Shown: positions 1-28,629 of the stretch, piece by piece | How positions within the stretch are numbered: position 1 is the stretch's first letter | How the letters are laid out: the number at the start of each line of letters is the position of its first letter | Assembly: GCA_015060445.1 (NCBI GenBank) | Contig: SUYL01000037.1 | Span: forward strand, 1,577 to 65,576 | Direction of reading: 5' to 3' | DNA from: Bacteroidales bacterium | GTDB taxonomy: Bacteria; Bacteroidota; Bacteroidia; Bacteroidales; UBA932 | DNA: 64,000 nt | Notes under the pieces: generated by a model | The model's input: the letters and a program-made list of their open reading frames with translations, nothing else | Databases searched by the model: none | What the model was told of the DNA's origin: nothing | Position numbers and translations under genes: made by a program

Positions 1-2408
1 TTCTTTAGAATAGCAAACTTGTCAGAAATTAAATAGGGTTTAAAGATGGATTTTTTCCAAAATAGTCTTCTGTAATACTCTATAGACATTGAAATGCTTA
101 CTAAAAAAAATATCAGTGGTATCAATAAAGCATACCAGTCCGATACACCTTTAAACATCTCGAATAGTGCTTCTGCAAATAATAGCGCCGTAAATACCCA
201 CCACATAGCCATGGTGGCTCCAATAGTCTTATAATCAGGAATGCCTGTTATCCTTAACCAAAGGGCTCTCCCTGATAAAGCTATAGCACCTGAAACAAGT
301 ATTAGTATATCCCATAATGTCAACCCTTCATACCATTGCTTCATCTCATGGTCTACTGGAAGAATTCCTAAGATAGAGACAATTGTTGAAAGAGCAACCA
401 ATATTATCAACGGGAATAGGAAACAATGCTTTACTAACCCTTTCCTACGCTGCTTTTTTAAGGATTTTGTTATGAATTCATGTGTAAGTGGAGTAAGCAA
501 TTTTTCATACTTGAACAGAAAGTATTCCGCCTGCAACAGCAATGACCTTTCCTGAATAAGTCCTTTGACTGATTTGTTGTCTGCTGCCCAATAGCCAGCC
601 TGCTTTTGGTAATAATCATTCTGTTTGAGGAATTGTGCTTTAGTATTGCACCACTCCCTAATTACTGACCAGAAATTAATAAGCATTTCGTGAACTATTG
701 TAATGGTTGCCTCCCCAGCAGAATTCTTACCCGATACAAAAAGATGGGCATCCACCAACTGCTGCAGAACATCTTTTCGCAATTTGGATCTGGCCACATC
801 CTTCATCAAAGATGTTTTCCTTACAAAAAGCTTCCCTTCCTTGTCTGAAATAGTTATTACAGTTCCTAGCATATCAGAGAACACACTCTTCTCCTGCTCT
901 GTAAATCCATTGTACACTTTGTCTGCATATTTTATAATTGCACCATTAAGTTTGCCAATGGATTCATATGCCTCATAAGTAAGTATTTGGGTAGACTTGC
1001 ATGCATTGTAAAGTTCAGAGAGTCCGAACTCTATCAAAGGCAGTTCGCCCAAAGCAAACGCATCCTGAGCTATCTGCCTGCTCAGCTTTACACCTTTGTC
1101 ATTGATTTCCCAACTTAAATTCGCTTTCCTTGCCGGTTCTTCTACAATTTCTATAATACCCTCATATAAAACTTTAGGTAGATCCACCACAATAGCATTA
1201 TTCTTTATAAGATGCAGATCCGGGTATCTGGAGAAAACATTATAGAAATCGCTTCTCATAGAGAAAATCATCTGTATGCACCTTATTTCACATAATCCCC
1301 GCAACAGAATGAAGGTTCGGATTCTTTCCTGTTCCTGAATTTCATTATCGCTAAAAAGCTCTTCAAACTGGTCTAACAGGAACACCGTCTTAAGTTCACT
1401 ACATGAATTATCCAATGCATATTTGAGATGGCTGAAATTGTATCCCACCTCTATTCCGTTGTTAAGTTCATCAAGAACAGGATTTCCTTTTAGGTAAGGA
1501 AATTCATTGACCAGGATATTAATAATTCCGCTATAAATGTTGTTATGGAATACAGAAGGGATTATTTCATTAACATGTTCCTTGGTAACAGTGCTGCCGT
1601 AATTAACAAAATGCGGCAGGAGTCCCGCTTTAATAAATGATGACTTTCCGGAACCGCTTTCTCCCAAAACAAGTAGCGGCTGTCTCAGTTTCTGATCCAT
1701 AAGCGTCAATTTCTGGGCAACTTCATAAACCATATCCTTACGCCCGCAGTAGATTGCGCTCTGTTCAAAAGTAAAAGAATTAAGTCCTACATAAGGGTTG
1801 CCTTCCCACTCCCGCACATTCACATTTTTGCCAATAGCGTCTATTATAAGTTTCTTCAGATGGGTCCTGAGTCTTTCTTCAAAAGTCTGCTGCTTGTCAA
1901 ACTGCCAATACGCATAATTGGTATTTGTTTCTGCATCATGGAATTTCTCGCCAATAAAGGAATGTAGCATCTCTTGCTGTTTCAATGCATCTTTTATGGC
2001 CACTGTAGACATTCCATTTGCAAACTGCACCTCTACATCCTTAACATAAACCATTATCTTTGGATTCCCGGTTGTGCGCCACAAAGTATACATAGTATCA
2101 AACTCATACTCTGTTCCCGACAAATATTCACTGCCATCCGGTTTGCGGAAAGTATGCCCTAATGTACTTCCCAGACGCGACCACAAAATAAAAATGGCAA
2201 TATCTACGGGTGCAGCATTAAGGAAATAGTCAATCCCATTCTGAAATGAATTGGTTGCTGCCAGAGGTAAATCTTCCCACATCAAAGTTTCCAGTTCAAT
2301 ATACCCCCTATATATGGTCTGCAACTCTTCAATTACTCTTTTTGCAATACCCCTTTCAAGGTTCACATCAGAAGGGGATGAGATAAATATCCTGAGTTTA
2401 TTTTTCAT
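1..2408 (-). CDS. TIR-like (DUF4062-type) N-terminal domain / STAND P-loop NTPase / C-terminal multi-pass membrane region; 3' end runs off the left window edge (>=802 codons present)
   Basis: Not in the supplied ORF track because there is no stop inside the window. Own minus-strand translation from the ATG at 2408-2406 gives MKNKLRIFISSPSDVNLERGIAKRVIEELQTIYRGYIELE... Walker A LLVLGESGSGKSSFIKAGLLP is encoded around 1620-1690 in the same frame. The frame stays open to base 3 (...EYYRRLFWKKSIFKPYLISDKFAILK). Hydrophobic helices occur in the last ~120 codons, e.g. FLFPLIILVALSTIVSILGIL and IGATMAMWWVFTALLF. Confidence 0.7.
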   Translation of the reverse strand, partial: MKNKLRIFISSPSDVNLERGIAKRVIEELQTIYRGYIELETLMWEDLPLAATNSFQNGIDYFLNAAPVDIAIFILWSRLGSTLGHTFRKPDGSEYLSGTEYEFDTMYTLWRTTGNPKIMVYVKDVEVQFANGMSTVAIKDALKQQEMLHSFIGEKFHDAETNTNYAYWQFDKQQTFEERLRTHLKKLIIDAIGKNVNVREWEGNPYVGLNSFTFEQSAIYCGRKDMVYEVAQKLTLMDQKLRQPLLVLGESGSGKSSFIKAGLLPHFVNYGSTVTKEHVNEIIPSVFHNNIYSGIINILVNEFPYLKGNPVLDELNNGIEVGYNFSHLKYALDNSCSELKTVFLLDQFEELFSDNEIQEQERIRTFILLRGLCEIRCIQMIFSMRSDFYNVFSRYPDLHLIKNNAIVVDLPKVLYEGIIEIVEEPARKANLSWEINDKGVKLSRQIAQDAFALGELPLIEFGLSELYNACKSTQILTYEAYESIGKLNGAIIKYADKVYNGFTEQEKSVFSDMLGTVITISDKEGKLFVRKTSLMKDVARSKLRKDVLQQLVDAHLFVSGKNSAGEATITIVHEMLINFWSVIREWCNTKAQFLKQNDYYQKQAGYWAADNKSVKGLIQERSLLLQAEYFLFKYEKLLTPLTHEFITKSLKKQRRKGLVKHCFLFPLIILVALSTIVSILGILPVDHEMKQWYEGLTLWDILILVSGAIALSGRALWLRITGIPDYKTIGATMAMWWVFTALLFAEALFEMFKGVSDWYALLIPLIFFLVSISMSIEYYRRLFWKKSIFKPYLISDKFAILK

Positions 2409-2503
2409 GACACTTCTCTTCTTTTAAGCATAATAACGTGCTTCCTATAAAAATTGAAAATTAATTACTTTTTCCAGATAGATGATTACTAGATTCGTCA
2501 GGT

Positions 2504-2932
2504 TTAATATTCTATTTTGATATTTGCATTAATCTCAATGCCATCACTTAAAATATTAATTTGATTGAGATTTAATAGTTTATGGACCAGAGATAATTCT
2601 GGTATATCACTAAGTGATAGAGTAATCTTGTTATTATTAGCCGATATGAAAGCAAGGTTTTTCATATCGGCAATAGAGTTAAGGATAGTAGGAAGGAATG
2701 TGTTAACAAGTGTGCTGCTATCTGCTTTAAGCACAATATTGTTTCCAGAAACATTATAAATCGATAGTGATATTGAAATGTCCTTCTTTACTTCTCCAAT
2801 GAGGAATAAACTTGTTTTATATGTATATGTGATGTTAATTTTTCCATTGTAACCATATTCCAAATGAATAGGTTGATTTATTTTCTTTGAAATAAAAGAA
2901 TTGATTTCGTGATAATTAGCTTTAAGTTGCAT
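2504..2932 (-). CDS. Small hypothetical protein (142 aa), paralog of the adjacent 133-aa protein
   Basis: ORF track. Very AT-rich. Shares collinear patterns with 2947..3348 (YHEINSFISKKIN vs YTEISNIIKAKTK; GKINITY vs DKINIKI; ISISLSI vs LSLSINS). Lies 14 bp downstream of its paralog on the same strand. No family recognised. Confidence 0.55.
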   Translation of the reverse strand: MQLKANYHEINSFISKKINQPIHLEYGYNGKINITYTYKTSLFLIGEVKKDISISLSIYNVSGNNIVLKADSSTLVNTFLPTILNSIADMKNLAFISANNNKITLSLSDIPELSLVHKLLNLNQINILSDGIEINANIKIEY

Positions 2933-2946
2933 AAATGTAGTAGCCT

Positions 2947-3348
2947 TTATAAGTTAAATATCAGATTGAATCCATTTGGAGTTGCCTCCAATGAGGATAT
3001 TGAAACGGACGCAAATATGTTTCCTAACTTCGGTATCTTAGGTAAACATATTTTGATATGTTTTGTCGAGAAGTTAATAAATGGGAAAATATCGGCTTTG
3101 TTTGAAAGTATGGTTGTAATACCATTAACTAATGATTCAACTCCAGGATAATCACTGTTAATAGATAAACTTAAATCTCCCGTTGGTGAGTAATAAAAAA
3201 GCATGTCCGCATAAATCTCTCCTATATTCTGGTGTGGGATAATTTTTATATTTATTTTATCTGAAGAAATATATGAAAGGGTATTTGCCAACTTTGTTTT
3301 AGCCTTAATTATGTTTGAAATCTCTGTATATGATATAAATATCTTCAT
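2947..3348 (-). CDS. Small hypothetical protein (133 aa), paralog of 2504..2932
   Basis: ORF track. Tandem paralog of the next gene on the same strand. No signal peptide or known motif recognised. Confidence 0.55.
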   Translation of the reverse strand: MKIFISYTEISNIIKAKTKLANTLSYISSDKINIKIIPHQNIGEIYADMLFYYSPTGDLSLSINSDYPGVESLVNGITTILSNKADIFPFINFSTKHIKICLPKIPKLGNIFASVSISSLEATPNGFNLIFNL

Positions 3349-3452
3349 TAAATTTTATTGTGTATAAGTGTTATTTCTATTCTATAATGTATCTTGAGTT
3401 GTATTAAATTTTTAAAATGATAAGGCTAAATCATACATTTATCGTAATTGTA

Positions 3453-3854
3453 TCAAACTATTGTCCATCCATTGTCATAGTGGGCACTGCCAACTTGAAT
3501 CTCTTTACATGTAATTGTAAATTCTTCATATTGTTGCAGTTCATCTTTTTTGTCATAGGTCTCAGCATACTCAATCATGTAAGCCTCCTTAAAACAGACT
3601 TTTTTTATTTCTGAACCTTGATCATTTGCAATAGAAATAAATCCATTTTTGCTCAGATATGTATTGCACATCCATTCCATCAAATCCTCCTCCCCGTTAT
3701 CTTTGGATTTGACTTTAAGGTAGATATATCCCCCTCTAATTGATCCTATAGGCTGGCCTTCTATGTCTGTCTTTTGTTTTAATTCGTAACGGAAATAAAC
3801 TACTTCACGTTCTGCAATGCTATCGGCATTAAAAGTTACAATTTTAGATGTCAT
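3453..3854 (-). CDS. TssD/Hcp-like tube-protein homolog (Bacteroidota T6SS TssD type), orphan
   Basis: 133 aa. The pattern EREVVYFRYELKQKTDIEGQPIGSIRGGYIYLKVKS ... LMEWMC ... KKVCFKEAYMIEY ... EFTITCKEIQVGSAHYDNGW matches my recollection of Bacteroidales TssD proteins (x-GrP-x-GG-x-I-x-V, EWM, F-x-x-AY, final I-x-G...W). No other T6SS core genes are in the window. Confidence 0.6.
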   Translation of the reverse strand: MTSKIVTFNADSIAEREVVYFRYELKQKTDIEGQPIGSIRGGYIYLKVKSKDNGEEDLMEWMCNTYLSKNGFISIANDQGSEIKKVCFKEAYMIEYAETYDKKDELQQYEEFTITCKEIQVGSAHYDNGWTIV

Positions 3855-3885
3855 AATTTTTAATATTATAGGGAATATTATCAGT

Positions 3886-4935
3886 CTATTCTTTTTTTGA
3901 ATTTTTTATAAGTGTTAATTGTGAGATGATTTTTCGTTCAAGGTCTTCCTTTTCATTCTCATAATTGACAAAATCAATACCAGTGAGATCGTATGCAATA
4001 CTATCTGCGTATGGATAGTTGTCAAGTTTTATCGGTATTATCATCTTCCCATGTTCAACGGCAACGGATATCTCTTTTATTACGTTTTCAGACTTATTAC
4101 TGTTCTCAGATGATAAAAACAGAACCATCTGTGATTGCTTGATAGTATTTACAATTACAGATTTATAATTGCGGCCACTATATTCTCCTGTCCTGTCAAT
4201 CCAGAATTTGAGATTCATACGCTTCAATGTTTCTGCCAGTTCGTCTGCCTTTTCGCTGTCAATCCTTGAATAACTTATAAATAAATCATACTCGTCAATG
4301 CTTGTCTGTGCTTGTTTTACAGATTTATTTTCTATGGCAGGTTTAATGTTTCTCTCTACGCATGCGGCAAACTGCTCATAGAAGTCTATATACTTTATAT
4401 AATCAGGTTTTTCAGTTTGGTCATATATGTATAAGTACACTTTGTAGCAGGCATTGGTGCGTTTAAGAAAGTCAGATATGGCGCGGGACATAGTGAGTGC
4501 TATTCTAGGATAAGGAATACGCGCAGTGCCACCTCCTATTGTAGGGAAAGCAATAGAAGAAACATTAAGATGGCGCATAATGTTGAGACATTTTGTTACT
4601 GAATTGCCAATAATGTACTCATGAACTTCTTCAGTAGGCAGATCTTTTAGTGTACTGTTCCCGATGAATCCAATTGTAATGGCGTGAAAAATATATTTAT
4701 AGGGTAGTGTCCCCGAAGTGCTCACAATAATGTCACCAATTTTTGCAGGAACATGTTTCCTTACATCATTTTCTATGGCACCAGTTCCCTCTTTGCGGCG
4801 GATAGATGCAGATACACCTCCTCCCATTGTGACAAAACAATCATCACTGCTTACAAGTATGTCTGCATTCGAATCCAAGATGTTCCCAATTCGTATAGTA
4901 ACTTCTGAATTGTTGTATCTGTAAGTTCTTTCCAT
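3886..4935 (-). CDS. Macro domain - TIR domain fusion protein
   Basis: 349 aa. N-terminal macro motifs: GNILDSNADILVSSDD..MGGGVSASIRRKEG and IAFPTIGGGTARIP. C-terminal TIR_2-type motifs: YDLFISYSRIDSEKADELAETL..KFWIDR, MVLFLSSENSNKSENVIKEISVAVEHGKMIIPIKLD (candidate catalytic Glu in IKEIS). Confidence 0.8.
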   Translation of the reverse strand: MERTYRYNNSEVTIRIGNILDSNADILVSSDDCFVTMGGGVSASIRRKEGTGAIENDVRKHVPAKIGDIIVSTSGTLPYKYIFHAITIGFIGNSTLKDLPTEEVHEYIIGNSVTKCLNIMRHLNVSSIAFPTIGGGTARIPYPRIALTMSRAISDFLKRTNACYKVYLYIYDQTEKPDYIKYIDFYEQFAACVERNIKPAIENKSVKQAQTSIDEYDLFISYSRIDSEKADELAETLKRMNLKFWIDRTGEYSGRNYKSVIVNTIKQSQMVLFLSSENSNKSENVIKEISVAVEHGKMIIPIKLDNYPYADSIAYDLTGIDFVNYENEKEDLERKIISQLTLIKNSKKE

Positions 4936-5055
4936 ATAATGAATATCACAAGACTTTTATTGATCCAAACAAAAATAGTCATATTATAAGCGAACTCCAA
5001 GAGTTTTTATCTTAATTCCGGATATTGAATTATAACGTTACACTGAATCATAATT

Positions 5056-6450
5056 TTAATTCAGTAAACTCAAATCAATGTCAGGTACAATAACCTCCGT
5101 AAGTTTATCCTTAATAAGAAATCCCATATAAAGAGGTATTGTAAGGATCTCTTGTTCGCGACCTACATTATATTGCCCAAGTTTGATTGCATTATTGAGG
5201 TGGTAAACATTCTTATTTTTCAAGGCCGTTTTCAGACTCTTTGTTTTGCCGGATTTCGCCTTGACTTCAAGTACAACACATTCGCCCTTGTAGCGTACAA
5301 GAAAGTCCAATTCAAGACCACTATCCTTCTGGAAGTAGTACAGTTTCTGTCCGGACTTATAAAGAAAATCGGCCATGAGATTCTCAAATATAGCTCCTTT
5401 ATATCCCAAAAGATTTCCTTTGAGGATGTCTGCTTGAGTACCATAATCAAGCATAGCTACAAGAATACCTATATCTGTGGTGTATAACTTAAAGCAATCC
5501 TTAATGGAATTGCCTTCGAGTGGCAGTTCTGTAATCAGTGTATTATAGCATCTCTTTGCTATTCCTGCATCTTCAAGCCATTGGATGCTGCCTATATATT
5601 GCGAAGAACGTCCTCCTTTTCTTACTACTGAATACTGGAATTTTTTATTGTCCTTAGCCAATTGCTTGGGAATAGACTCAAAACATTCACGGATACGGGG
5701 TTTGTCTGCGTCATCTGCGTATTTGACCATATCCTCTTCGTATTCATCAATCAGATTACGCTGTGTTTTGTATGTGAGTTCGATATTTTTAGTTTCAAGG
5801 AATGTGTTTACCACCTCCGGCAGCCCTCCGACTATTACATATCTATGCAATAATTCCATCATTACCTTATGAATACCGTCGGGAACAGCCGTTTCATTTT
5901 CGAAACACACTTTCACCGTATCAATTACTTTGTCGTTGATTCCATTTGCCCACAGGAACTCTTCAAAATCTAACGGGTACATTTCAACCACAGTCTCATA
6001 TCCTATGGGGATAGAGTCCTGTCCCTCCTCCGGTGTTTTGTTGTTTTTACCATATCCTTTTACACCAAGGAGGGAGCCTGTCGCAATAACATCAAAACGC
6101 CCATCCATTTGGAATGATTTTAATGCTGTTCTTGCTTCTCTGCATTCCTGAATCTCATCAAGGATAATGCAAGTTCTTCCATTAATGAAACGACTTCCAG
6201 GAATCAATGCAGACAAATTAAGAATAATGGTATCAACATCAATATTTCCGGCAAAGGCAGACTTTTTATCAGGTTCAAGAATAAAGTTCATATAAACCAC
6301 ATTCTCGTAATTCTCCTTTGCGAATTTTTGGACAATATATGTCTTGCCACATTGACGGATACCTTTTATCACAAGCGGTTTCTTGGAACCGGAGGCTTTC
6401 CACTCAACCAAAACTGACTCGATTTTTCTTTTCAGCATCGTATTATACAT
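5056..6450 (-). CDS. AAA-family ATPase with C-terminal DUF4143 (PD-(D/E)xK-like) domain
   Basis: Walker A VIKGIRQCGKTYIV, Walker B CIILDEIQ, C-terminal ELDFLV...VVLEVKA. The track ORF starts at 6537, but the N-terminal 29 aa look like translated repeat DNA. The likely start is the ATG at 6450 or 6438 (MYNTMLKRKIES). Confidence 0.8.
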   Translation of the reverse strand: MYNTMLKRKIESVLVEWKASGSKKPLVIKGIRQCGKTYIVQKFAKENYENVVYMNFILEPDKKSAFAGNIDVDTIILNLSALIPGSRFINGRTCIILDEIQECREARTALKSFQMDGRFDVIATGSLLGVKGYGKNNKTPEEGQDSIPIGYETVVEMYPLDFEEFLWANGINDKVIDTVKVCFENETAVPDGIHKVMMELLHRYVIVGGLPEVVNTFLETKNIELTYKTQRNLIDEYEEDMVKYADDADKPRIRECFESIPKQLAKDNKKFQYSVVRKGGRSSQYIGSIQWLEDAGIAKRCYNTLITELPLEGNSIKDCFKLYTTDIGILVAMLDYGTQADILKGNLLGYKGAIFENLMADFLYKSGQKLYYFQKDSGLELDFLVRYKGECVVLEVKAKSGKTKSLKTALKNKNVYHLNNAIKLGQYNVGREQEILTIPLYMGFLIKDKLTEVIVPDIDLSLLN

Positions 6451-6663
6451 TTGTTTGAGTGCGAAAATACATTTTTTTAAGCGAATAATCAAGATGTAGT
6501 TACACTTTTTCAGGCGAATAATTCTGTATGGCAACATTTTTTAGAACGAATAAACAGATGAATTGTAGCAGCCTCAAAAAGTAGTGCAACTTTTTGCACT
6601 ATAAAAAGATAGATTTTTTGTATTTCTCCCTCTATACATAAAAGATCATTAATTTTTACTGTT

Positions 6664-7095
6664 ATGTTAATTCTTATTTCTTTTATGGTGTTAGCCTATG
6701 CGATTATGGGTAAGGATATTAAACCTCTTTTGGAGCGTGTGAGACGTGTTGAATGGCGCTGGGAGATAGAGAAGTTATTGGAAAAGATGAGGCCATGGGC
6801 TCTCAAGGCTGGACGAGTTGCCGCCAAACCTCTATTGCAGTTCTATTTTGTATTGTCGGATGAAAGTACTTCAACAGCTGACCGTATGATGATTTATGCT
6901 GCAATAGCTTATACTGTTCTGCCAACGGATTTATTGCCAAGGGCAGTGTATAAGTTGCTGGGTATCCTGGATGATGGAGTGGCAATTCTGTATGTTTATA
7001 GGAAGATAAAAGATAATATTACTCCAGAAATTGAGGAAAGAGTTGAAAATACACTTAATGAATGGTTTGGTGTTGAATATAGCGTAGTGAAATAA
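6664..7095 (+). CDS. DUF1232 (YkvA-like) membrane protein
   Basis: Motif IYAAIAYTVLPTDLLPRAVYKLLGILDDGVAILYV is typical of DUF1232. N-terminal TM helix. Confidence 0.7.
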   Translation: MLILISFMVLAYAIMGKDIKPLLERVRRVEWRWEIEKLLEKMRPWALKAGRVAAKPLLQFYFVLSDESTSTADRMMIYAAIAYTVLPTDLLPRAVYKLLGILDDGVAILYVYRKIKDNITPEIEERVENTLNEWFGVEYSVVK

Positions 7096-7115
7096 ATAAG
7101 AAGGACTTGAAATCT

Positions 7116-7436
7116 ATGAATAAACGTATTGCACTTGTGCTATGCCTAATCCTGTATCTTTTGTGTACTTTGTTGAGAACATATAATTGGGGGAGAGTGG
7201 AAACGGGATATGATGAACTTAATGATATAGCGGTTTCCTATTATGGATATGATTTTTCTTTTAGGAATATAGATGTGCCGTTGCTGTTGATACTCCAATT
7301 GGTTTTGTCGGTAACACTGGTACCATGGGTAATATGGCTTGTCCGAAAGAGGGATTTTAGAATGGATTGGTTGCACCTGAGTGGTGGAATGTTTTTGAGT
7401 CAATTGGCTGTTGTGGAATGCTTGTCTGCATTATGA
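7116..7436 (+). CDS. Small hypothetical membrane protein
   Basis: The track ORF 7107..7436 begins at a TTG; the first ATG is at 7116. Two to three hydrophobic helices. No family recognised. Confidence 0.4.
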   Translation: MNKRIALVLCLILYLLCTLLRTYNWGRVETGYDELNDIAVSYYGYDFSFRNIDVPLLLILQLVLSVTLVPWVIWLVRKRDFRMDWLHLSGGMFLSQLAVVECLSAL

Positions 7437-7533
7437 TTGGAACAATCTGCCTTTTTTATGAGGTGGTAAGGGCAGTAATGTATCCGGTATTGTTTGGAAA
7501 AGAAAAAGAAGTTAACCCTAAAAATAAATTATT

Positions 7534-7890
7534 ATGAAATGGAATGAAGTTGTTAAAAAGGAGATTGGTATTTTGGATATGGTTATTGCATTTGATACAA
7601 CAGGATCAATGGCAGCCTATATAGATGCAGTGAGGCAGGAGGTTGCAGAACTTATACCTGGTCTGTTCAAAGACAATGAAAACTTGCAACTTGATATTGT
7701 GGCTTTTGGTGATAGTGTGCCTTTTTCCAGCGGGCATAAGACTGCCAGACTGGTTGAAGTTGCAACTATGGTAAGGGGATCGGAGAAATCACGTGCCAAG
7801 TTTGATGAAATGGCATCGGAATGTGTTGATGAGGAGATGCGCAATGTGTTCAGACTTTACGGACTACAGGCAAGGAATAATTATGACTGA
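7534..7890 (+). CDS. Short vWA-like protein (N-terminal half of a von Willebrand A fold; possibly truncated)
   Basis: MIDAS-like VIAFDTTGSM followed by LDIVAFGD, but only 118 aa (a vWA domain is ~180 aa). Its stop overlaps the start of the next gene (ATGACTGA at 7883-7890). Confidence 0.5.
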   Translation: MKWNEVVKKEIGILDMVIAFDTTGSMAAYIDAVRQEVAELIPGLFKDNENLQLDIVAFGDSVPFSSGHKTARLVEVATMVRGSEKSRAKFDEMASECVDEEMRNVFRLYGLQARNNYD

Positions 7891-8992
7891 TATGCTAAAA
7901 GACAAGGTTCGCGGGTCTCTTATGGCGGGTGCTGCAGGAGATGCCCTAGGTTATAAAGTGGAGTTTTGGAGCAGGAAAGCAATCCTGAAGCAGTATGGAG
8001 AGAGGGGGATTGTAAAGTTTGAGTTGGATAAAGGGTGTTATCTTGAGGAGGGTACCGGTAAGGCCCTTATCAGTGATGATACCCAGATGACCCTCTTTAC
8101 TGCAAATGGGCTCCTGAATGCAGTCACTTCAAGGGAGACACCCAAGTATGCTATAGCAAAGGCATACATCGAATGGCTGTTGACACAGGATTACACCCGC
8201 AAAAAAATGGCGAAGAGTTGCTGGATCAGTGGAGATGAAAGATTGTATGATAGGAGGGCTCCGGGAAATACATGTCTCAGTGCTTTGGATTCAATTATTA
8301 GAGGAAGGGATGCCTCCAATAGCAGCAAAGGATGTGGTGGTATTATGAGGGTAGCACCTGTGGGGTTGTATGGTGCTGTCGGGAATAGAATGACAGCACT
8401 TGAGGTGGCGCAATTGGCAGGTGATGCTGCAGAGATTACACATCAGCACCCTTTGGGGTTTCTTCCTGCATCATTGTTGGCAGTGCTGGTATATAAAGTT
8501 GTACCTCAGACTCCTCAATATGTGCAGGAGAATATGGATACTATTGTTGAAGAGGTTCTTGCCCTGCTTGATGAGGTTTACAAAGGGGAATATGAGGCCT
8601 CCAAAAATGATTTGCGCCAAATGAGTTTGAAAGCCATTGCTTTGGCCCATTCCAATACTCCCGACGAAGAGGCAATTCTCCAACTGGGGGAGGGATGGAC
8701 AGCAGAGGAGGCATGGACCATTTCCCTTTTCTGTGCCATCCGCCATATAACCAGTGTGGAGGATGCAATTGCTGCAGCGGTGAACCATGATGGAGACAGT
8801 GACTCCACAGGCTCAATTACCGGAAATATCATGGGGGCAATTTACGGGTATGAACATTTGAAGGAATGCAATCTTTTCACTCCCGACGGTCATCTATTTG
8901 AAGAGACTCTTGAACTTTCAGATTTGATACTCGCCATTGCCGATGACCTTTCAACTGTTGGAGCACTGGATAAAAAACGGTACAAATTTTAA
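7883..8992 (+). CDS. ADP-ribosylglycohydrolase family protein (DraG/ARH-like)
   Basis: GSLMAGAAGDALGYKVEF, ISDDTQMTLF, AVNHDGDSDSTGSITGNIMGAIYG. The track ORF starts at 7793; the ATG at 7883 (MTDMLKDKVRGSL) fits the family N-terminus and overlaps the upstream stop. Confidence 0.85.
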   Translation: MTDMLKDKVRGSLMAGAAGDALGYKVEFWSRKAILKQYGERGIVKFELDKGCYLEEGTGKALISDDTQMTLFTANGLLNAVTSRETPKYAIAKAYIEWLLTQDYTRKKMAKSCWISGDERLYDRRAPGNTCLSALDSIIRGRDASNSSKGCGGIMRVAPVGLYGAVGNRMTALEVAQLAGDAAEITHQHPLGFLPASLLAVLVYKVVPQTPQYVQENMDTIVEEVLALLDEVYKGEYEASKNDLRQMSLKAIALAHSNTPDEEAILQLGEGWTAEEAWTISLFCAIRHITSVEDAIAAAVNHDGDSDSTGSITGNIMGAIYGYEHLKECNLFTPDGHLFEETLELSDLILAIADDLSTVGALDKKRYKF

Positions 8993-9018
8993 AGTGACTT
9001 GATAGAATTCCAGAATAG

Positions 9019-9061
9019 ATCTCTCTATTAGTATATACAAACCTAATAGAGAGATTTTTTT
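9019..9061 (+). terminator. Rho-independent terminator
   Basis: Perfect 13-bp stem ATCTCTCTATTAG (9019-9031) / CTAATAGAGAGAT (9043-9055), 11-nt loop, then a T6 run. Confidence 0.7.
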
Positions 9062-9691
9062 ATGAAACAGAGAATTTTCAATCTCGTCATTCTGGACGAG
9101 AGCGGATCAATGGGGAGCATTGAGAAGCAGGCGGTTGATGGTGTTAACGAGACAATCCAGACAATCCGCAAGGCACAAGAGAAGCATCCTGAGCAGGAGC
9201 ATTATATTTCTGTGGTTACATTTAATGATGATTCCAGAACTGTATATGATTGTGTTGCGGCAAATGAGGTCAAGGAGTTTGGCAGCAGTGACTATAATCC
9301 GGACTGTTGCACAGCCCTTTTTGATGCAATGGGTTTTTCGTTGAATGCCCTTAAACCTAAAGTGGCTGAGAATGACAAGGTCCTTGTTACCATAATCACC
9401 GACGGTATGGAGAACGCATCCAAAGAGTTCTCAAATGACGCAATCAGTACACTTGTAGATTCCCTTAAGGCCAGAGGATGGGTGTTTGCATATATTGGGG
9501 CAAACCAGGATGTTATGAAGGTGGCAGCCAGTATTTCAATTACTAATACCATGTGTTTCCACAGTACATGGGAAGGAACAGCGGCAATGAACAGTAGGGT
9601 GAGACGTAGCCGTGAAAGGATGTATGACAGGATGGCTGAAGATGATTTCAATCCGGTGGAGGCAAACAATACTTTTTTTGAGGAGGAATAG
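9062..9691 (+). CDS. vWA domain protein (~210 aa, complete MIDAS)
   Basis: LVILDESGSMGS (DxSxS), CTALFDAM (Thr), LVTIITDGMEN (Asp). Confidence 0.8.
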   Translation: MKQRIFNLVILDESGSMGSIEKQAVDGVNETIQTIRKAQEKHPEQEHYISVVTFNDDSRTVYDCVAANEVKEFGSSDYNPDCCTALFDAMGFSLNALKPKVAENDKVLVTIITDGMENASKEFSNDAISTLVDSLKARGWVFAYIGANQDVMKVAASISITNTMCFHSTWEGTAAMNSRVRRSRERMYDRMAEDDFNPVEANNTFFEEE

Positions 9692-9694
9692 ATA

Positions 9695-10867
9695 ATGAAG
9701 AAGAGAATTTCATTCAAACTTTTCCGTACTGTTGTCTGGAGGGGTTTGTGCCAGATGGCAGAATCTGTCGGGAAACTGTTTGGCTATAAGGGGGAGGGCT
9801 CTTTTGCCAAAGTTGTATGGAGGATTTTTGCGGGGTGTGGTGCCCTGTTGCTGCTGATGTTTACAAGTGTGATGCTGTATGGATTCATTACAGAGATTGT
9901 TATAGATGAATTTGCCGAGTCTGTGGGGTTGTGCAAGCGGGAGCCATGGAAGGAGATTCACATAAGCAATAATGTTGTGCATCAGAGGTTTTATAATGCA
10001 AAGTCGCGCCTGTATAATGAGGCAACCGGAAAAGTGATGATTGAAGGTTTGGATTGGGTTGTCACCTCAGATGACAAGGATTCCCTTGCCGTATTTGCAA
10101 AAGACGGCAAAAGGGGCTATGTAAACCGTTTTACCGGTGAGATTGCCATTCCTGCGCAATATACAAGGGCTTGGGTATTTTGTGAGGGGCTTGCGGCTGT
10201 GGAGAAGGATAGACAACTGATTTTTATAGACCATAGCGGCAATGTTGTAATTGACAAAGGTTTTGAGGTCTATTTCAATGATGATGCATACGGCTTTAAA
10301 AATGGATACTGTATAATAAGGGACAAGGTTACCGGAAAGTTTGGCCTTATAGACAGGAAAGGTGAATGGGTATTGGAGCCTGAGTTTGACAATATTCATC
10401 CTATGGATTCTTTTGTGAGAGTTTATAAAGATGACCTTGAAGGGTTGTATTCAATTAAGATGGAAGAGATGTTTGCTGTACAATATCAGGAAATATATAT
10501 GACAGACAGTACAATTGTTGCAAGAGGGACAGATGATATTGCCGCCATTTATGATCTGGAGGGGAATGTACTGCACCCAATGGTAATAGATGATGTTGAG
10601 GTGTTGGAGTACCCTACAAAGAAATATCATATAGTGCAGGATGAGGAGGAAGGTGAACTTATTGACCATGTGTATGCAGTTGCAAACTGCATGTCATATA
10701 AAGTGGGGGCAACTTATGCCAGGGGGCATTATGGTCTGCTGAGTCCCCAGGGGAAACGGCTTACTCCTCCAATCTACACAAAGATTGAGGCCATTGCCGC
10801 AAACAGATACTTGTGCCAGCCGCAAGGTGTGATACTTGATGATAATGGGAATCAGGTGAAACAATAG
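9695..10867 (+). CDS. WG-repeat (KWG-like) protein with N-terminal TM anchor
   Basis: Repeated units GKRGYVNRFTGEIAIPAQYTRAWVFCEGLAAVEKD and GKFGLIDRKGEWVLEPEFDNI. TM helix FAGCGALLLLMFTSVMLYGFI. Confidence 0.7.
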   Translation: MKKRISFKLFRTVVWRGLCQMAESVGKLFGYKGEGSFAKVVWRIFAGCGALLLLMFTSVMLYGFITEIVIDEFAESVGLCKREPWKEIHISNNVVHQRFYNAKSRLYNEATGKVMIEGLDWVVTSDDKDSLAVFAKDGKRGYVNRFTGEIAIPAQYTRAWVFCEGLAAVEKDRQLIFIDHSGNVVIDKGFEVYFNDDAYGFKNGYCIIRDKVTGKFGLIDRKGEWVLEPEFDNIHPMDSFVRVYKDDLEGLYSIKMEEMFAVQYQEIYMTDSTIVARGTDDIAAIYDLEGNVLHPMVIDDVEVLEYPTKKYHIVQDEEEGELIDHVYAVANCMSYKVGATYARGHYGLLSPQGKRLTPPIYTKIEAIAANRYLCQPQGVILDDNGNQVKQ

Positions 10868-10904
10868 CCACATTTTCATCTAAATTGGGTATTTTTTTAT
10901 ATTG

Positions 10905-10945
10905 TAGGGTGTAAAACTTTTATGTAGTTTTGCACCCTATTTTTA
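10905..10945 (+). terminator. Rho-independent terminator-like hairpin
   Basis: TAGGGTGTAAAAC (10905-10917) / GTTTTGCACCCTA (10927-10939), one G-U position, followed by TTTTTAT. Confidence 0.5.
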
Positions 10946-10959
10946 TAAGTATACCATAT

Positions 10960-13929
10960 ATGAGAAAATTATTTTTAGGAACTCTTATGTGTGCGGCATT
11001 ATTGGCCGCTTGTGGCATGGGCACGAGTGCAAATGCCCAGGAGCAGAATAAAAGTCTGCAGCCCAAGAGTGCAGTTAAGCCGGCCCTGGACCATTCGGTT
11101 TATGACAAGTGGGAGACACTTGGAGGCTATGCCATTACGGATAACGGCCAGTGGGCCGCATATTATTGCAACAGGGAGGAGAATGACGGTTCTGTGAATG
11201 TCATCAATCTTACAACTGAGAAAACCATAACCATCCCAAGGGGTGCAAGGATGAAGTTCTCACCTGAAGGGAATCATCTGGTTTTCACCATCAGGCCTAC
11301 CCATGCACAGCAGAAGGAGGCGAAACTGAAGAAACTCAAAGGGGACAAGGCTCCAAAGGATACTTTGGGTATCCTTGAACTTGCTACAGGAAATATTGTA
11401 AAGTTTCCGGCTCTCAAAGGGGTTGAGATTCCTCGCGAGGGGGGAAATTTCATTGCATTTAAAGTGGAGCACAAGGAGTCTCTTCCCGACAATAAAGAAG
11501 TGGCTGCCGGCGAAGGGAAAAAGAGTGCAAAGAAACAGCCTAAGCCAAAGACAGAGATTCTTACCATCATTTATGATCTTTCAACAAACTCTGTTGCCGA
11601 TACCCTCAAGGAGGTGGATGTCCTTTCATTCAACAAGAAAGGTGACCGTCTTTTCTGTATAGCAAAAGGGGATAAGTACAAGAAACTCTATTCTTACAAT
11701 CCTGCAACAAAATCTTCAGATGAGATTCTCCAGACAGGGAAGAAGGGTGAGATTATCAAACCTTATCTCTCAGCAAATGAGAAGTTCATAATCTTCTATG
11801 CCAATACAGATACTACCAGGAAGATTGATGAGAATGTTGAGATCTATACATTCAATATTTATGCTAAAGGGGCAAAGGCCCAGAAAGTTGTTGACAACTC
11901 AATGGCGGGCATCCCTGAGGGGATGAGGGTAACCCGTAACCGTGCCCTCAATACCAACAAGGCCGGCAGCCGTCTCTTCTTTGGAATTACAGTAATACCT
12001 CCACAGAAGGATACCACCATCAAGGAGGAGCAGGCCAAGGTGGATGTATGGCATTACAATGATGATTTCATCTCAACCCAGCAGTTGAACATGAGGGGTA
12101 TGCTCACCAAGAGAAGTTACCTCAGTACCATAGATTTGGATACAGTGTCCCATGCTGCGGCAAGAGAGGAACTTGTACGCTTGGCTCAGCCTGAGTATCC
12201 GAACATTACAGTACCTGCAGAGTGGAGCGCAGATTATGCCTACGCATTCAGCAGTGAGAGATACAACATTCAGAGCCAGTGGGATGCAAATCCAATCTGT
12301 GACCTTTACCTTATCTCTTTGAAGGACGGCTCTTCAAGAATGGTTGCTCAGAAGATTTATGCCAGCAATATAAGTGCATCTCCAAAAGGTAATTTCCTTG
12401 TATGGTACAATCCTGAGCAGAAACAGTTCTTCTCACTGGATATGCGCGTAGCAAACACAGAGAAAGGGGTTGGCATAAGCAATGTGGCTGAGCCGTTGGT
12501 TATTTCCAACGGAATCCATTTCCCTCTCTGGAAAGAGTCGCATGACAAGCCACAGATGGCCCCTGCATACGGCAATGGCGGCTGGAGTGCAGATGAGAGG
12601 ACTTTCTACGTATATGACAAATATGATGTATGGGAGGTTGACCCTCTTGTGCAGAAAGTTCCACAGATGCTTACCCAGGGATTGGGAAGGGAGAAAGGCT
12701 ATACCTTCAGGATGATGAGATGGGATGCCCTTCAGCTTCCCGACGGTACTCCAGGTATAAAGAAAGAACCTGTCGGGAAGAAGGACAATGTATATTTCAC
12801 AGCATTTGACAATAAATCAAAGGGCAACGGATATTATATGAGACAGAACCGCAGGGGCAAACTCCTCCCAATGAGGGAACTCATTATGGAGCCCGATTTT
12901 GCTTTGGGATATCTGAATAAGGCCAAAGATGCAAATGTGATCACTTATACAAAGAACAACTTTGTGGAGAGTACAAACATGTGGGTTACCAAAGACCTGT
13001 TCAAGACCTCAAAGAAACTTACCAATTCAAATCCGCAGCAGGCAGACTACAATTGGGGAACCTGTGAGTCTGTATATTGGACAGCCTTTGACGGACGCGA
13101 ACTTGAAGGTCTCCTTTACAAGCCTGAGAATTTTGATGCCAGCAAGAAATATCCTATGGTGGTTTATTTCTATGAGACATCCAGCCAGTACAAACATGCG
13201 TACCGCAAACCTGCTGTAAGCCGTTCTACAATAAATATCACATATTTTACCAGCAACGGGTACCTTGTATTTATGCCGGATATCCACTACACCGTAGGAC
13301 ACCCTGGAAAGAGTGCCTATAACTGTATAGTTTCCGGTGTTGAAGCCCTCTGCAAGAACTCTTGGGTTGACAGGGAGAACATTGCAATCCAGGGGCAGAG
13401 TTGGGGCGGATACCAGGTTGCATACCTTGTTACCCAGACAGATATGTTCAAATGTGCCGGTTCAGGTGCCCCTGTAGCCAACATGACCAGCGCATACGGT
13501 GGTATAAGATGGGGTAGCGGAGTTGTAAGACAATTCCAGTATGAGCATACCCAGAGCCGTATTGGCAAGACCCTTTGGGATGAGGGAGGCTTTGACCTTT
13601 ACATAGAGAACTCACCTCTTTTCTTCGCCGACAAGGTTAATACACCTCTGCTTATAATGCACAACGACAAGGATGAGGCAGTTCCATGGTATCAGGGCAT
13701 TGAGTACTTCACAGCATTGCGCAGACTTGGCAAACAGGTTTGGATGCTCCAGTATAACGACGAGAGCCACAATATAAGCAAGAGGGTGAATGCCCTTGAC
13801 TACACAATAAGATTGTCACAGTTTATGGACCACTTCCTAAAAGGGGCCCCTATGCCTGTGTGGATGAAATATGGAGTTCCGGCAACCCACAAGGGAATTG
13901 ATATGGGACTTGAACTGGTTGAAGAGTAA
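10960..13929 (+). CDS. S9-family (prolyl oligopeptidase / acylaminoacyl peptidase type) serine peptidase, lipoprotein signal
   Basis: Nucleophile elbow IQGQSWGGYQ, MHNDKDEAVPW (Asp), NDESHN (His). Signal MRKLFLGTLMCAALLAACG from the ATG at 10960 (track start 10930 is an upstream alternative). Confidence 0.85.
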   Translation: MRKLFLGTLMCAALLAACGMGTSANAQEQNKSLQPKSAVKPALDHSVYDKWETLGGYAITDNGQWAAYYCNREENDGSVNVINLTTEKTITIPRGARMKFSPEGNHLVFTIRPTHAQQKEAKLKKLKGDKAPKDTLGILELATGNIVKFPALKGVEIPREGGNFIAFKVEHKESLPDNKEVAAGEGKKSAKKQPKPKTEILTIIYDLSTNSVADTLKEVDVLSFNKKGDRLFCIAKGDKYKKLYSYNPATKSSDEILQTGKKGEIIKPYLSANEKFIIFYANTDTTRKIDENVEIYTFNIYAKGAKAQKVVDNSMAGIPEGMRVTRNRALNTNKAGSRLFFGITVIPPQKDTTIKEEQAKVDVWHYNDDFISTQQLNMRGMLTKRSYLSTIDLDTVSHAAAREELVRLAQPEYPNITVPAEWSADYAYAFSSERYNIQSQWDANPICDLYLISLKDGSSRMVAQKIYASNISASPKGNFLVWYNPEQKQFFSLDMRVANTEKGVGISNVAEPLVISNGIHFPLWKESHDKPQMAPAYGNGGWSADERTFYVYDKYDVWEVDPLVQKVPQMLTQGLGREKGYTFRMMRWDALQLPDGTPGIKKEPVGKKDNVYFTAFDNKSKGNGYYMRQNRRGKLLPMRELIMEPDFALGYLNKAKDANVITYTKNNFVESTNMWVTKDLFKTSKKLTNSNPQQADYNWGTCESVYWTAFDGRELEGLLYKPENFDASKKYPMVVYFYETSSQYKHAYRKPAVSRSTINITYFTSNGYLVFMPDIHYTVGHPGKSAYNCIVSGVEALCKNSWVDRENIAIQGQSWGGYQVAYLVTQTDMFKCAGSGAPVANMTSAYGGIRWGSGVVRQFQYEHTQSRIGKTLWDEGGFDLYIENSPLFFADKVNTPLLIMHNDKDEAVPWYQGIEYFTALRRLGKQVWMLQYNDESHNISKRVNALDYTIRLSQFMDHFLKGAPMPVWMKYGVPATHKGIDMGLELVEE

Positions 13930-24277: not shown

Positions 24278-25441
24278 TTATCTGAGCCTGTATTTGTAGA
24301 AGTGTTTGCGGATTAGGGTGAGGAGGTAAACAAGCCCCAGGATTGTGAGGGCAAATCCTACAGCGTATGCTGTTGAATAGTTTGAGTATTGGGCAATTAT
24401 GCCGCCGCAGAAAACTCCTGCTCCCACTCCTAGATCAAAGAATGTGAGATAGGTGGCATTTGCGGCTCCCCGTTCTGTATCTTCACCCAGGTTTATTATC
24501 ATTGTTTGGGCAGTGGGGGAGATGAGTCCGTAGCCTATGCCCATAAAGATGGCGGAGGAGTAGAATGCTGTGGGGTTAAGTATGAATGCCACTATAAAGA
24601 ACCCGATAATGAGGGAGATTATCCCCAGTGCAAATACCATTATATATTTCCCGCTCCGCAGAATCATTGATGATGAGAGTCGTGCGGCTACAAGACCGGC
24701 GGAGAATATGGTAAAGTAGTATCCTGTACCTTGGGTAAGTCCAACCTCTTCCTTTGCGTATATTGAGAGATACACTGTAATTATTCCGTATCCGAATGTA
24801 AGGAGCACCATTACGGCAGCAACCGGAAGACCCTTCCGCAGGAGCAGGCTGGAGATGCTGAATTTTCTGTTAGAACGCTGCACATCCTTGCCAGGCTTTA
24901 TGTTTGCTGTGGCCAGAAATCCTGTCAGGCCAACGCAGAATACCGCAATGAAAATGGTATTGAATTCAATACCGTTCTCATTCATAAAAAGAGAGATAAG
25001 CGGTCCTGTGGCCATGGCAAGGGAGGTAGATGAGGTATAGATTCCCAATCCTTCTCCTCTCCGTTCCCAGGGGATGATATCTACAGCCATTGTATTTATC
25101 CCTACGGTTGAGCACCCGAAGGCTATGCCGTGTACAAAGCGGATTATAAAGAAAAGTCCCAATGTGGCTGCCAGTGTGTAACTCAGGCACATTGAGATAT
25201 AGAAAAGATAGAAGCACATCATAAGGGGCTTGCGGGAGGCTTTGTCGAGCCAGAATCCTGCTACAGGCCTTGTTATGAGTGCCGCTATAGTATAAAGGGA
25301 CAATATTGTCCCTATTATTGATTCACTTGCGTGAAGATGGTTTGCCAGATATAGTGGCAAAATGGGCAACAACATGTAAAAAGCGTTGTACATTAAGAAG
25401 TTGCCCAAGTTTACCAATATGAAGTTCCTGTTCCAAAGCAT
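24278..25441 (-). CDS. MFS transporter
   Basis: ~12 predicted TM helices, loop motif GFWLDKASRKP. Likely start MLWNRNFILVNLGNF at 25441 (track start is 25483). Confidence 0.85.
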   Translation of the reverse strand: MLWNRNFILVNLGNFLMYNAFYMLLPILPLYLANHLHASESIIGTILSLYTIAALITRPVAGFWLDKASRKPLMMCFYLFYISMCLSYTLAATLGLFFIIRFVHGIAFGCSTVGINTMAVDIIPWERRGEGLGIYTSSTSLAMATGPLISLFMNENGIEFNTIFIAVFCVGLTGFLATANIKPGKDVQRSNRKFSISSLLLRKGLPVAAVMVLLTFGYGIITVYLSIYAKEEVGLTQGTGYYFTIFSAGLVAARLSSSMILRSGKYIMVFALGIISLIIGFFIVAFILNPTAFYSSAIFMGIGYGLISPTAQTMIINLGEDTERGAANATYLTFFDLGVGAGVFCGGIIAQYSNYSTAYAVGFALTILGLVYLLTLIRKHFYKYRLR

Positions 25442-25560: not shown

Positions 25561-25600
25561 GACACCTGATATTTTAGTTTGTACTGTTTTGTTTACAGTG

Positions 25601-25637: not shown

Positions 25638-25658
25638 GAAAATTTTCTGCAAAAAATT

Positions 25659-28607: not shown

Positions 28608-28629
28608 TTTTATTGTAAAAAGATAGAAA

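Follow-up and report, generated by a model that had tools for sequence, protein, structure and literature searches.

A stretch of 64,000 nucleotides (nt) from contig SUYL01000037.1 of a Bacteroidales bacterium, called the window in what follows, contains a gene whose product joins a macrodomain to a TIR domain in one polypeptide chain. This gene, Macro-TIR, occupies positions 3886-4935 of the minus strand. Its open reading frame (ORF) starts with ATG, is complete, stop codon included, and encodes 349 amino acids (aa). Macro-TIR is the first of five genes that form an operon on this strand and is followed, in this order, by the genes of an Hcp-like protein, of the small proteins p133 and p142, and of an nSTAND1 NTPase. 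The intergenic gaps within the operon measure 14-104 nt. TIR NADases and macrodomains are central to immunity based on NAD+ and ADP-ribose in bacteria, plants and animals. The original prediction, made from the sequence of the window, had described the protein as a fusion of an ADP-ribose binder or eraser with an NAD-cleaving domain. The fusion is real, far beyond chance, and might represent a ligand-gated effector of bacterial defence.

The macrodomain and the TIR domain

Both domains are recognized by Pfam-A profiles. The Macro profile (PF01661) matches residues 32-143 with an E-value of 1.3e-11 and 44.9 bits (cut-off 22), and the TIR_2 profile (PF13676) matches residues 219-332 with an E-value of 6.6e-18 and 65.8 bits (cut-off 28). 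The ThsB_TIR and TIR profiles likewise exceed their cut-offs. The macrodomain as a whole, supported by a profile search of the Protein Data Bank (PDB), by Foldseek and by conservation, comprises residues ~12-174 (4414-4902, minus strand), and the TIR_2 domain comprises residues 216-332 (3940-4290, minus strand). The AlphaFold2 model, calculated with 35 homologs, has a mean predicted local distance difference test score (pLDDT) of 85.6 and consists of two well-folded domains connected by a disordered linker. The linker, residues 196-212 (4300-4350, minus strand), has a pLDDT below 50 and varies in length and sequence in the alignment. No hydrophobic transmembrane stretch could be read from the sequence of the ORF. 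The profile scores and the two domains of the model thus bear out the macro and TIR_2 fusion of the original prediction, and its estimate that a TIR_2-like domain begins near residue 215 agrees with the Pfam match. The motifs that it quoted are all present: NADILVSSDD (residues 23-32), GGGVSASI (38-45) and FPTIGGGTARIP (130-141) in the macrodomain, and DLFISYSRID (217-226) and LFLSSENSNKSENVIKEIS (272-290) in the TIR domain.

The profile search of the PDB with the macrodomain found the macrodomain of PARP14 (7.5e-27), TTHA0132 (5.4e-22), YmdB (2.2e-20) and OiMacroD (2.7e-19). Foldseek matched the N-terminal half to the macrodomains of Oceanobacillus MacroD, macroH2A1.1, PARP14, TTHA0132 and YmdB in the PDB, with target TM-scores of ~0.80-0.84. 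By these comparisons the domain is classed with the MacroD/macroH2A-like group, and neither with the ALC1/TARG1/DarG group nor with the macrodomains of the ThsA type. The NCBIfam DarG model gives 19.2 bits against a cut-off of 250 (E 5.8e-4), the PADLOC DarG model gives an E-value of 4.5e-5, and the ThsA Macro models of PADLOC match only 23 residues (119-141) with an E-value of 0.003. No match to DarT was found by PADLOC in any neighboring ORF.

The two glycine-rich loops of the macrodomain are intact. One is formed by M37-G38-G39-G40-V41-S42 (residues 37-42) and the other starts with A129-F-P-T-I-G134-G-G136 (residues 129-141). G17, G38-40, P131, G134 and G136 are near-invariant in 230 macrodomains of the clade, and G67 and G75 are also conserved in the alignment. 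Residue 18, which is positioned at the adenine contact, is D or N in 169 of the 181 TIR-fused relatives. As a property predicted from these residues, the binding of an ADP-ribose-type ligand is well supported. The catalytic positions are different. In an alignment with YmdB and the first macrodomain of PARP14, the catalytic asparagine of the NAAN motif is replaced by Asp32 and the aspartate of GGGVD by Ser42. The resulting signature, VSSDD...MGGGVS...FH, is kept in ~75% of the macro clade. One subclade has ISGS...GGLP instead, which places Ser and Pro at the Asn and Asp positions, and it retains the binding loops and the TIR glutamate. The Asn and Asp that define a MacroD-type ADP-ribosylhydrolase are thus absent in either case, and canonical MacroD hydrolysis is not supported by the alignment. 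The 'canonical macro motifs' of the original prediction hold for the macrodomain and its glycine-rich loops, but not for the catalytic Asn and Asp.

The profile of the family, compared with the PDB, matches the SPARTA TIR-APAZ chains 8j8h, 8fex and 8sp0 (E ~1e-10) and C. elegans TIR-1. Glu288 (codon 4072-4074) is aligned to Glu77 of the MapSPARTA TIR-APAZ chains 8fex/8sp0, which we take to be the catalytic residue of that NADase; HMMER, aligning the two pairwise, places the VIKE288 motif opposite VLKE77. This glutamate is kept in 167 of 169 Macro-TIR relatives, and F219, S221, Y222, R224, W245, D247, S279, N280 and S282 are conserved to a similar degree. The glutamate that had been placed at the catalytic position of NADases from the window alone is therefore confirmed by its SPARTA counterpart and by its conservation. 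With a profile score above the cut-off and an aligned glutamate, the domain has the sequence characteristics of an enzymatic TIR, and it is predicted to cleave NAD+.

The identity of the two domains bears on one of the roles proposed in the original prediction, that of a toxin with a built-in antidote. In analogy to DarT/DarG and SirTM-Macro, the TIR domain would put ADP-ribose on a target and the macrodomain would reverse this modification in the producing cell. Pairs of a writer and a macrodomain eraser do exist, in DarTG and in sirtuin-Macro operons (PMC9503650), and the weak PADLOC and NCBIfam matches to DarG are compatible with such a role. However, the score for DarG falls well short of the cut-off, the domain falls into the MacroD/macroH2A group, the canonical catalytic residues are missing and a DarT-like partner is lacking. 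Furthermore, a toxin and an antidote linked covalently in a 1:1 ratio offer no obvious switch, and the closest relatives of the TIR domain, SPARTA TIR-APAZ and TIR-1/SARM1, deplete NAD+. The antidote analogy is therefore disfavored, and the role is highly improbable.

The Macro-TIR family and its neighborhoods

A word-indexed search found 169 clusters of homologs at 90% identity, nearly all of which have the same Macro and TIR architecture. When 1.84 billion representatives were searched exhaustively, 103 matched at E <=1e-30, and ~50 of these are full-length Macro-TIR clusters at 50% identity. Species-representative genomes, a set that excludes the genome of the window, contain seven full-length relatives, all of them at most 44% identical. 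These full-length members belong only to Prevotella, Alloprevotella and other Bacteroidales, and most come from metagenome-assembled genomes (MAGs) of gut or rumen. A metagenome scan with an alignment of the close clade yielded only 6 loci, and no full-length Macro-TIR was found in 72,556 plasmid records or in 50,697 phage records.

The macrodomain of this clade is not confined to one partner. Pfam scans of the distant matches found it in the architectures Macro-TIR_2, Macro-DUF4062, Macro-DUF4062-TIR_2, Macro-CHAT and CHAT-Macro. The Macro-TIR core may also carry N-terminal additions, which include TIR, FHA, protein kinase, ECF sigma factor, N6-methylase and metallopeptidase-like domains (examples of swaps and additions are proteins P0181, P0187, P0220, P0190, P0211, P0132, P0137, P0141, P0158 and P0206). 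DUF4062, a TIR-like NADase whose assembly takes place on the portal ring of phages (bioRxiv 10.64898/2026.05.01.722283), is also found in single-gene defense systems that consist of an NADase core and an auxiliary region (bioRxiv 10.64898/2026.06.25.731849). A constant macro module combined with interchangeable cell-killing domains (TIR, DUF4062 NADase and the caspase-like CHAT protease) is, by analogy, the pattern of the SAVED, STING, SLOG and CARF sensors.

The neighborhoods of the relatives, cited here by the L numbers of the fetched loci, fall into about 21 distinct contexts. In raw counts, for which there is no background comparison, further TIR or DUF4062-like genes are present in 14 of these ~21 contexts, a RyR module in nine and nSTAND1 in six. 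Pairs of TIR and nSTAND1 genes flank the relatives in L001, L007, L012, L013 and L096. The nSTAND1 protein of L012 was considered as a member of the same subfamily as that of the window and was rejected, since the two have only the NTPase core in common, at 23% identity.

Distant relatives (38-56% identity) typically follow the RyR module, which is recurrent and uncharacterized, and are accompanied by several other TIR genes. The module is made up of a protein of ~800 aa with weak Rossmann and weak C-terminal RyR similarity, a protein of ~185 aa with a weak match to sigma-70 region 4 or a helix-turn-helix, and, as its third part, a ~320-aa RyR protein. It often occurs together with a PrsW protease, a second RyR protein of 95 aa and TerB/TerD. 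It is located at L001:15832-20596, L007:931-4821, L005:3325-7970, L011:1897-9976, L016:2259-6184, L045:4155-8395, L013:13768-18016 and L111:182-3253. PADLOC detected no known defense system in the module and its neighbors. In L111 (L111:3394-8558) the Macro-TIR gene, 56% identical to that of the window, starts 5 nt after a gene whose 1200-aa product is rich in TPRs and begins with a DUF4062-like region, and the gene after Macro-TIR also has a DUF4062-like N-terminus (23.7 bits, cut-off 24.7). These N-termini echo the DUF4062-like N-terminus of the nSTAND1 protein in the window.

The macrodomain might also be an eraser or a processing enzyme. It would hydrolyze or convert ADP-ribose (ADPR)-derived products or signals of the fused TIR domain or of neighboring TIR and DUF4062 proteins, either as an off-switch that limits autoimmunity, as ring nucleases do, or as the second step of a pathway, and the TIR domain would mainly co-assemble with other TIRs. 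The closest structural and sequence relatives of the macrodomain are active hydrolases of the MacroD type (OiMacroD, YmdB, MacroD1/2 and Af1521). S29, S30, D31, D32, M37, S42 and H84 are strongly conserved in ~75% of the clade, as is typical of an active site, and the gene usually has more than one further TIR gene in its neighborhood. Fusions of macrodomains with effector proteins of the caspase type had been noted in conflict systems of bacteria by Kaur et al. (2021; PMC8195603), who called these domains 'ADP-ribose-processing'. On the other hand, the canonical Asn and Asp are replaced by D32 and S42, and the subclade with Ser and Pro at these positions has nevertheless kept its loops and the TIR glutamate. 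A fusion of the macrodomain to a CHAT protease would make no sense as a two-step NAD pathway, and the near-invariance of the TIR glutamate argues that the TIR domain is no mere adaptor. An eraser is thus considered unlikely, although the signal-processing enzyme named in the original prediction is still conceivable.

The operon and its Hcp-like gene

A promoter-like element of the Bacteroidetes type, a -7 element TAnnTTTG (TATTTTTG), is located at 4970-4977 on the minus strand, 35 nt 5' of the Macro-TIR ATG, and was identified by a consensus match only. A scan for sigma-70-type promoters, which is uninformative for Bacteroidetes, gave sites no more numerous than in shuffled controls. No terminator-like site was found in a scan of the minus strand between 2300 and 5056.

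The third and fourth genes encode small proteins. The p133 gene (2947-3348, minus strand) has no family match and is known from two clusters at 90% identity, too few for tracing its origin. The p142 gene (2504-2932, minus strand) is a weak paralog of p133, with 27% identity over the full length and an E-value of 2e-4 in BLASTP. Neither protein has a match in Pfam, PADLOC, NCBIfam or PHROG. The AlphaFold2 model of p133, calculated from a three-sequence alignment, has a pLDDT of 48.8 and is too poor for a fold search. A relationship of p133 and p142 to Hcp as divergent paralogs was rejected at the sensitivity of hhalign, which gave a probability of 0.1%.

The last gene of the operon continues beyond the left edge of the window, which holds the first 802 codons (1-2408, minus strand) of 1190 as an open frame without a stop. 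This frame ruled out the possibility that the region 1-2500 consists of pseudogenes. The complete gene was read from contigs L104-L110, which are 100% identical to positions 1-13,854 of the window. The protein contains an nSTAND1 NTPase domain (PF20703, residues 205-613, E 3.7e-63), together with segments of hydrophobic character and weak similarity to TPR. Its N-terminus has a sub-threshold DUF4062/TIR-like match (E 0.003, 18.1 bits, cut-off 24.7); a TIR domain at this position was rejected, as the comparison with the TIR profile of the family by hhalign gave nothing. An nSTAND1 NTPase and a protein with an effector domain are thus encoded in the same operon, as in nSTAND1 conflict systems.

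The GC content of the operon block is 0.30-0.39, compared with 0.42-0.47 in its flanks, and an IS21 IstB gene follows the nSTAND1 gene at the far end of the island (L104:15182-15907). The operon reads as a horizontally acquired, low-GC island flanked by an insertion sequence (IS). The same arrangement recurs on over 20 contigs from metagenomes and in a MAG from NCBI labelled Bacteroidales bacterium. IS genes, the IS21 IstB gene just mentioned and a DDE_5 transposase gene (L004:6757-8109), lie at the borders of the Macro-TIR islands, where the contigs also end, and such borders may be the cause of the fragmented assembly at these loci.

The second gene of the operon (3453-3854, minus strand), which lies 31 nt 3' of Macro-TIR, encodes an orphan Hcp/TssD-like protein of 133 aa. 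It matches the Pfam family TssD (PF17642) over its full length with an E-value of 7.9e-29. Its matches in the PDB are Hcp1 (6bdc, 1.5e-20) and, further down, B. fragilis Hcp2 (7e-11), TssD and Hcp3, to 6.5e-5. The homolog search gave 8 clusters, too few for tracing the origin of the protein. An Hcp-like gene 3' of Macro-TIR is a feature of the closest clade alone, in which identity is at least 77%. It is present in the window, L001-4, L096-97, L098 and L102 and missing from L099, and this Hcp subfamily was found nowhere else in the loci fetched. The Macro-TIR/Hcp pair recurs in four other contexts, with 77-81% identity for Macro-TIR and ~66% for Hcp. In the surroundings of the closest clade there are pairs of TIR_2 and nSTAND1 genes, TIR-WD40, SIR2-TIR and TPR-CHAT genes; the gene after Hcp in L001, L098 and L096 is TIR-WD40, or SIR2-TIR together with nSTAND1.

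The Hcp-like protein suggests a different function for its neighbor, in which Macro-TIR would be antibacterial cargo of a type VI secretion system (T6SS). The Hcp-like protein, in the manner of a minor Hcp, would bind Macro-TIR and export it by way of a T6SS whose genes lie in another part of the genome, the TIR domain would deplete the NAD+ of the recipient, and p133 and p142 would provide tandem immunity. The neighbor does belong to the true Hcp family of the Bacteroidota T6SS, as its TssD, Hcp1 and Hcp2 matches attest, and Macro-TIR and Hcp change contexts together. Minor Hcps of Bacteroidales cosegregate with, bind and export cognate effectors, such as Hcp1-Hcp2 with the 34-kDa Bte1 (PMC13213661), NADases are known among T6SS effectors (cited in PMC9092222), and the two tandem paralogous genes downstream resemble an immunity array. 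Other observations, however, speak against secretion. No T6SS structural genes are present among the annotated ORFs of positions 1-44,400 of the window, its 44 kb of unique sequence, or within 10 kb on each side, contig permitting, in L001, L096, L098, L104 or the other contexts of the pair. Every context long enough to judge is a TIR/STAND conflict island, and relatives at 38-70% identity that have no Hcp occupy islands of the same kinds. The p133 and p142 genes are restricted to the lineage of the window, and no candidate immunity gene follows Hcp in L001, L098 or L096. Furthermore, the effector gene lies upstream of Hcp, whereas it is downstream in the cassettes described (PMC13213661), and Macro-TIR has no PAAR, Rhs or other delivery domain. 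Export as T6SS cargo is therefore quite improbable.

Upstream of Macro-TIR, at 5056-6537 on the minus strand, is the gene of an ATPase with Pfam AAA_14 and DUF4143 domains, which matches the PADLOC defense candidate PDC-S01 with an E-value of 1.5e-153 and adds to the island character of the locus. The gap between the two genes is 120 nt, and Macro-TIR has a promoter-like element of its own. An AAA_14-DUF4143 gene also adjoins the 65%-identical Macro-TIR of L091 (L091:9294-10595), in an otherwise housekeeping context. Whether the ATPase is part of the system is uncertain. Because such genes are very common in Bacteroidales, its position could be due to chance.

A cluster on the plus strand, at 6664-10867, diverges from the AAA_14 gene. 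It encodes a DUF1232 protein, a small membrane protein, a VWA protein, a WG-repeat protein and a 399-aa ADP-ribosylglycohydrolase (PF03747, 9.3e-61) with weak similarity to Tri1/DraG models. A fragment of 118 aa, weakly similar to VWA_4, overlaps the start of the ADP-ribosylglycohydrolase gene. The cluster thus holds a second ADP-ribose-related enzyme less than 3 kb from Macro-TIR, and the other contexts of Macro-TIR lack it.

The right part of the window, positions 44401-64000, is a 100% reverse complement of positions 24795-44394. The two arms, of 19.6 kb each, are separated by a 6-nt center, and all of their ORFs are mirrored. This palindrome is most likely a fold-back artifact of assembly and not genuine. 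A second low-GC stretch (0.34-0.39) is positioned at the fold-back center, at 38000-44400 with its mirror image at 44400-50800. It has large ORFs of 570, 361 and 701 aa, of which those of 570 and 701 aa have no Pfam match at E <=1e-5.

Proposed ligand gating and comparison with known systems

The reading favored here, at a probability of about 0.45, is that Macro-TIR is a macrodomain-gated, NAD+-depleting effector of abortive infection and serves as the effector of a conflict operon of the nSTAND1 (NLR-like) type. The protein would be cytoplasmic. Its C-terminal TIR domain would cleave NAD+ with the help of Glu288, and its N-terminal macrodomain would bind an ADP-ribose-type ligand and gate the TIR domain. 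As a first step, the STAND NTPase would detect the invader and oligomerize, and its N-terminal TIR-like domain, or the TIR proteins of related islands, would cleave NAD+ or make an ADPR-derived signal. The macrodomain would then capture an ADPR-type ligand, which may come from these TIR or TIR-like domains of the system itself or may be the NADase product, resulting in feed-forward. Finally, ligand binding would push the TIR domains into an active oligomer, and NAD+ would collapse. The outcome would be abortive infection, most probably directed against phages.

TIR NADases become active through oligomerization. The proposed gating is supported indirectly by the constant macrodomain with its conserved binding loops and swapped killing domains, by the acquired islands rich in TIR and STAND genes, and by the precedents of Thoeris and of STING and SAVED. 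The macrodomain of type II Thoeris senses His-ADPR made by a TIR protein (bioRxiv 10.1101/2024.01.03.573942; PMC11204291), and STING-TIR and SAVED-TIR oligomerize only upon a nucleotide signal (PMC11204291, discussion). Of the roles named in the original prediction, an auto-regulated NADase is closest to this effector, since the macro clade is constant and the effectors TIR, DUF4062 and CHAT are swapped. Its analogy to ThsA is sound in concept, but not in membership, as the short PADLOC match demonstrates. The original prediction was right about the domains and the catalytic glutamate, but it missed the decisive context of the operon, namely the Hcp-like gene, the two small genes of no known family and nSTAND1.

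Several observations do not agree well with a gated effector. How the macrodomain and the TIR domain are oriented to each other is not confidently predicted in the AlphaFold2 model, which has a predicted TM-score (pTM) of 0.56 and a disordered linker between them. Conservation of the VSSDD...MGGGVS...FH signature in about three quarters of the clade could mean that this is a non-canonical catalytic site and not purely a site of binding. The sole other TIR-like domain in the window is the sub-threshold DUF4062 match of the nSTAND1 protein, which hhalign did not link to the TIR profile. The adjacent gene is a genuine member of the Hcp family, which a defense model leaves unexplained and which points to type VI secretion. 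Lastly, in 5-6 of the ~21 contexts (among them L009, L091, L093 and L113) Macro-TIR is a lone gene in housekeeping surroundings; in L113, for example, it comes after rpoC. As about a quarter of the contexts are of this kind, a signal producer in the neighborhood is not obligatory.

The lone genes suggest that the macrodomain could be a reader of ADP-ribosylation that accompanies infection, such as the marks left by phage ADP-ribosyltransferases on macromolecules of the host or the phage, or of ADPR freed by other NADase defenses. The TIR domain would then trigger or amplify the collapse of NAD+, and the protein would serve as a lone guard or as a feed-forward amplifier. The lone occurrences show that action without dedicated neighbors is possible, the domain is similar to those of macroH2A1.1 and PARP14, which are readers, and single-gene systems with an NADase core and an auxiliary region exist (bioRxiv 10.64898/2026.06.25.731849). 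On the present data, a reader would look the same as the gated effector of the operon, but it does not account for the placement of most members in operons with several TIR or STAND genes, and it is very unlikely.

The part that the Hcp-like protein might play in a gated effector system is only a guess. It could form a ring on which TIR domains assemble, or it could mimic the phage tube, an idea that derives from the assembly of the DUF4062 NADase on the phage portal. In a more far-reaching version of the favored reading, one that is rather unlikely, an Hcp ring derived from the T6SS would have been taken over by an NLR-like immune operon that acts inside the cell, where it would template the macrodomain-gated TIR NADase or serve as bait in the form of a tail tube. 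Macro-TIR would then be a new class of effectors that sense ADPR-type signals or products, either stand-alone or in the multi-TIR/STAND/RyR islands of gut and rumen Bacteroidales.

To our knowledge, the cooperation of a TIR domain and a macrodomain has so far been known only between separate proteins, in type II Thoeris. The terms 'Macro-TIR' and 'TIR-Macro' occur in no paper of the searchable literature, and text searches of a recent systematic survey of TIR signaling systems and of a structural study of macro-containing Thoeris found no such fusion. The fused family would add a new type of sensor to the ligand-gated TIR effectors, and it could reveal new ADPR-derived immune signals or a switch in which product feedback drives the collapse of NAD+. 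It is concentrated in Prevotella and other gut and rumen Bacteroidales, whose phage defenses are poorly characterized. The pairing of Macro-TIR with Hcp poses a question that can be tested: are parts of type VI secretion reused in immunity, or do gut bacteria deliver TIR NADases to one another?

Type II Thoeris, which consists of the TIR protein ThsB and a macrodomain effector with a transmembrane part (Macro-TM, ThsA/ThsC), resembles Macro-TIR in that one immune system employs a TIR domain and a macrodomain, the latter as the receptor of His-ADPR. The domains of Macro-TIR, however, are fused and soluble and have no transmembrane part, the macrodomain is MacroD/macroH2A-like, and the partners are an Hcp-like protein, two small proteins of no known family and nSTAND1. 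The two-gene operon of Thoeris, with a ThsB TIR and a Macro-TM protein of the ThsA type, was not found at the locus. DarTG also couples a macrodomain to an NAD+-using enzyme. DarG, however, is of the ALC1/TARG1 class and reverses the ADP-ribosylation of DNA by DarT, whereas the Macro-TIR locus has neither a macrodomain of the DarG type, as the DarG models score far below the cut-off, nor an adjacent DarT.

TIR-SAVED and TIR-STING, of CBASS and type III CRISPR systems, are nucleotide sensors fused to TIR domains, in which the NADase is turned on by ligand-induced oligomerization and the sensor family is joined to other effectors as well. The sensor of Macro-TIR is a macrodomain, no CD-NTase or Cas10 synthase is encoded nearby, and its gating is proposed from these precedents. 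In SARM1 (ARM-SAM-TIR), too, the TIR NADase is restrained by its N-terminal domain, which binds metabolites related to NAD. This regulatory domain has the ARM fold, which is unrelated to the macro fold, and Macro-TIR has no SAM octamerization domain. SPARTA TIR-APAZ is the closest solved TIR structure by sequence (~1e-10). Its Glu77 corresponds to Glu288, and both proteins have VxKE without the Trp of WxxxE, whereas Macro-TIR has neither an APAZ domain nor an Argonaute partner.

The cassettes Hcp1-Hcp2-Bte1 of Bacteroidales are similar in that a gene of the Hcp family adjoins and cosegregates with the gene of a putative 34-40 kDa toxin. The Macro-TIR pair, on the other hand, is located away from a T6SS locus, in reversed order, without a conserved immunity gene and in TIR/STAND surroundings. 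The operon as a whole is comparable to the nSTAND1 systems (Kaur, Iyer, Burroughs and Aravind, 2021), to Avs/bNACHT and to the DUF4062 systems Swarozyc and Evangelion. The shared features are a STAND NTPase with C-terminal repeats, TIR or TIR-like NADase effectors encoded together with it, an acquired, island-like setting and the depletion of NAD+ as the expected result. The operon of the window differs in that Macro-TIR is a separate gene, the Hcp-like gene and two small genes are inserted between the effector and the NTPase, and the DUF4062-like N-terminus is sub-threshold. Macro-TIR thus adds a variant to the known sensor-fused TIR effectors and to the NLR-like TIR systems, and its Hcp partner is unexpected.

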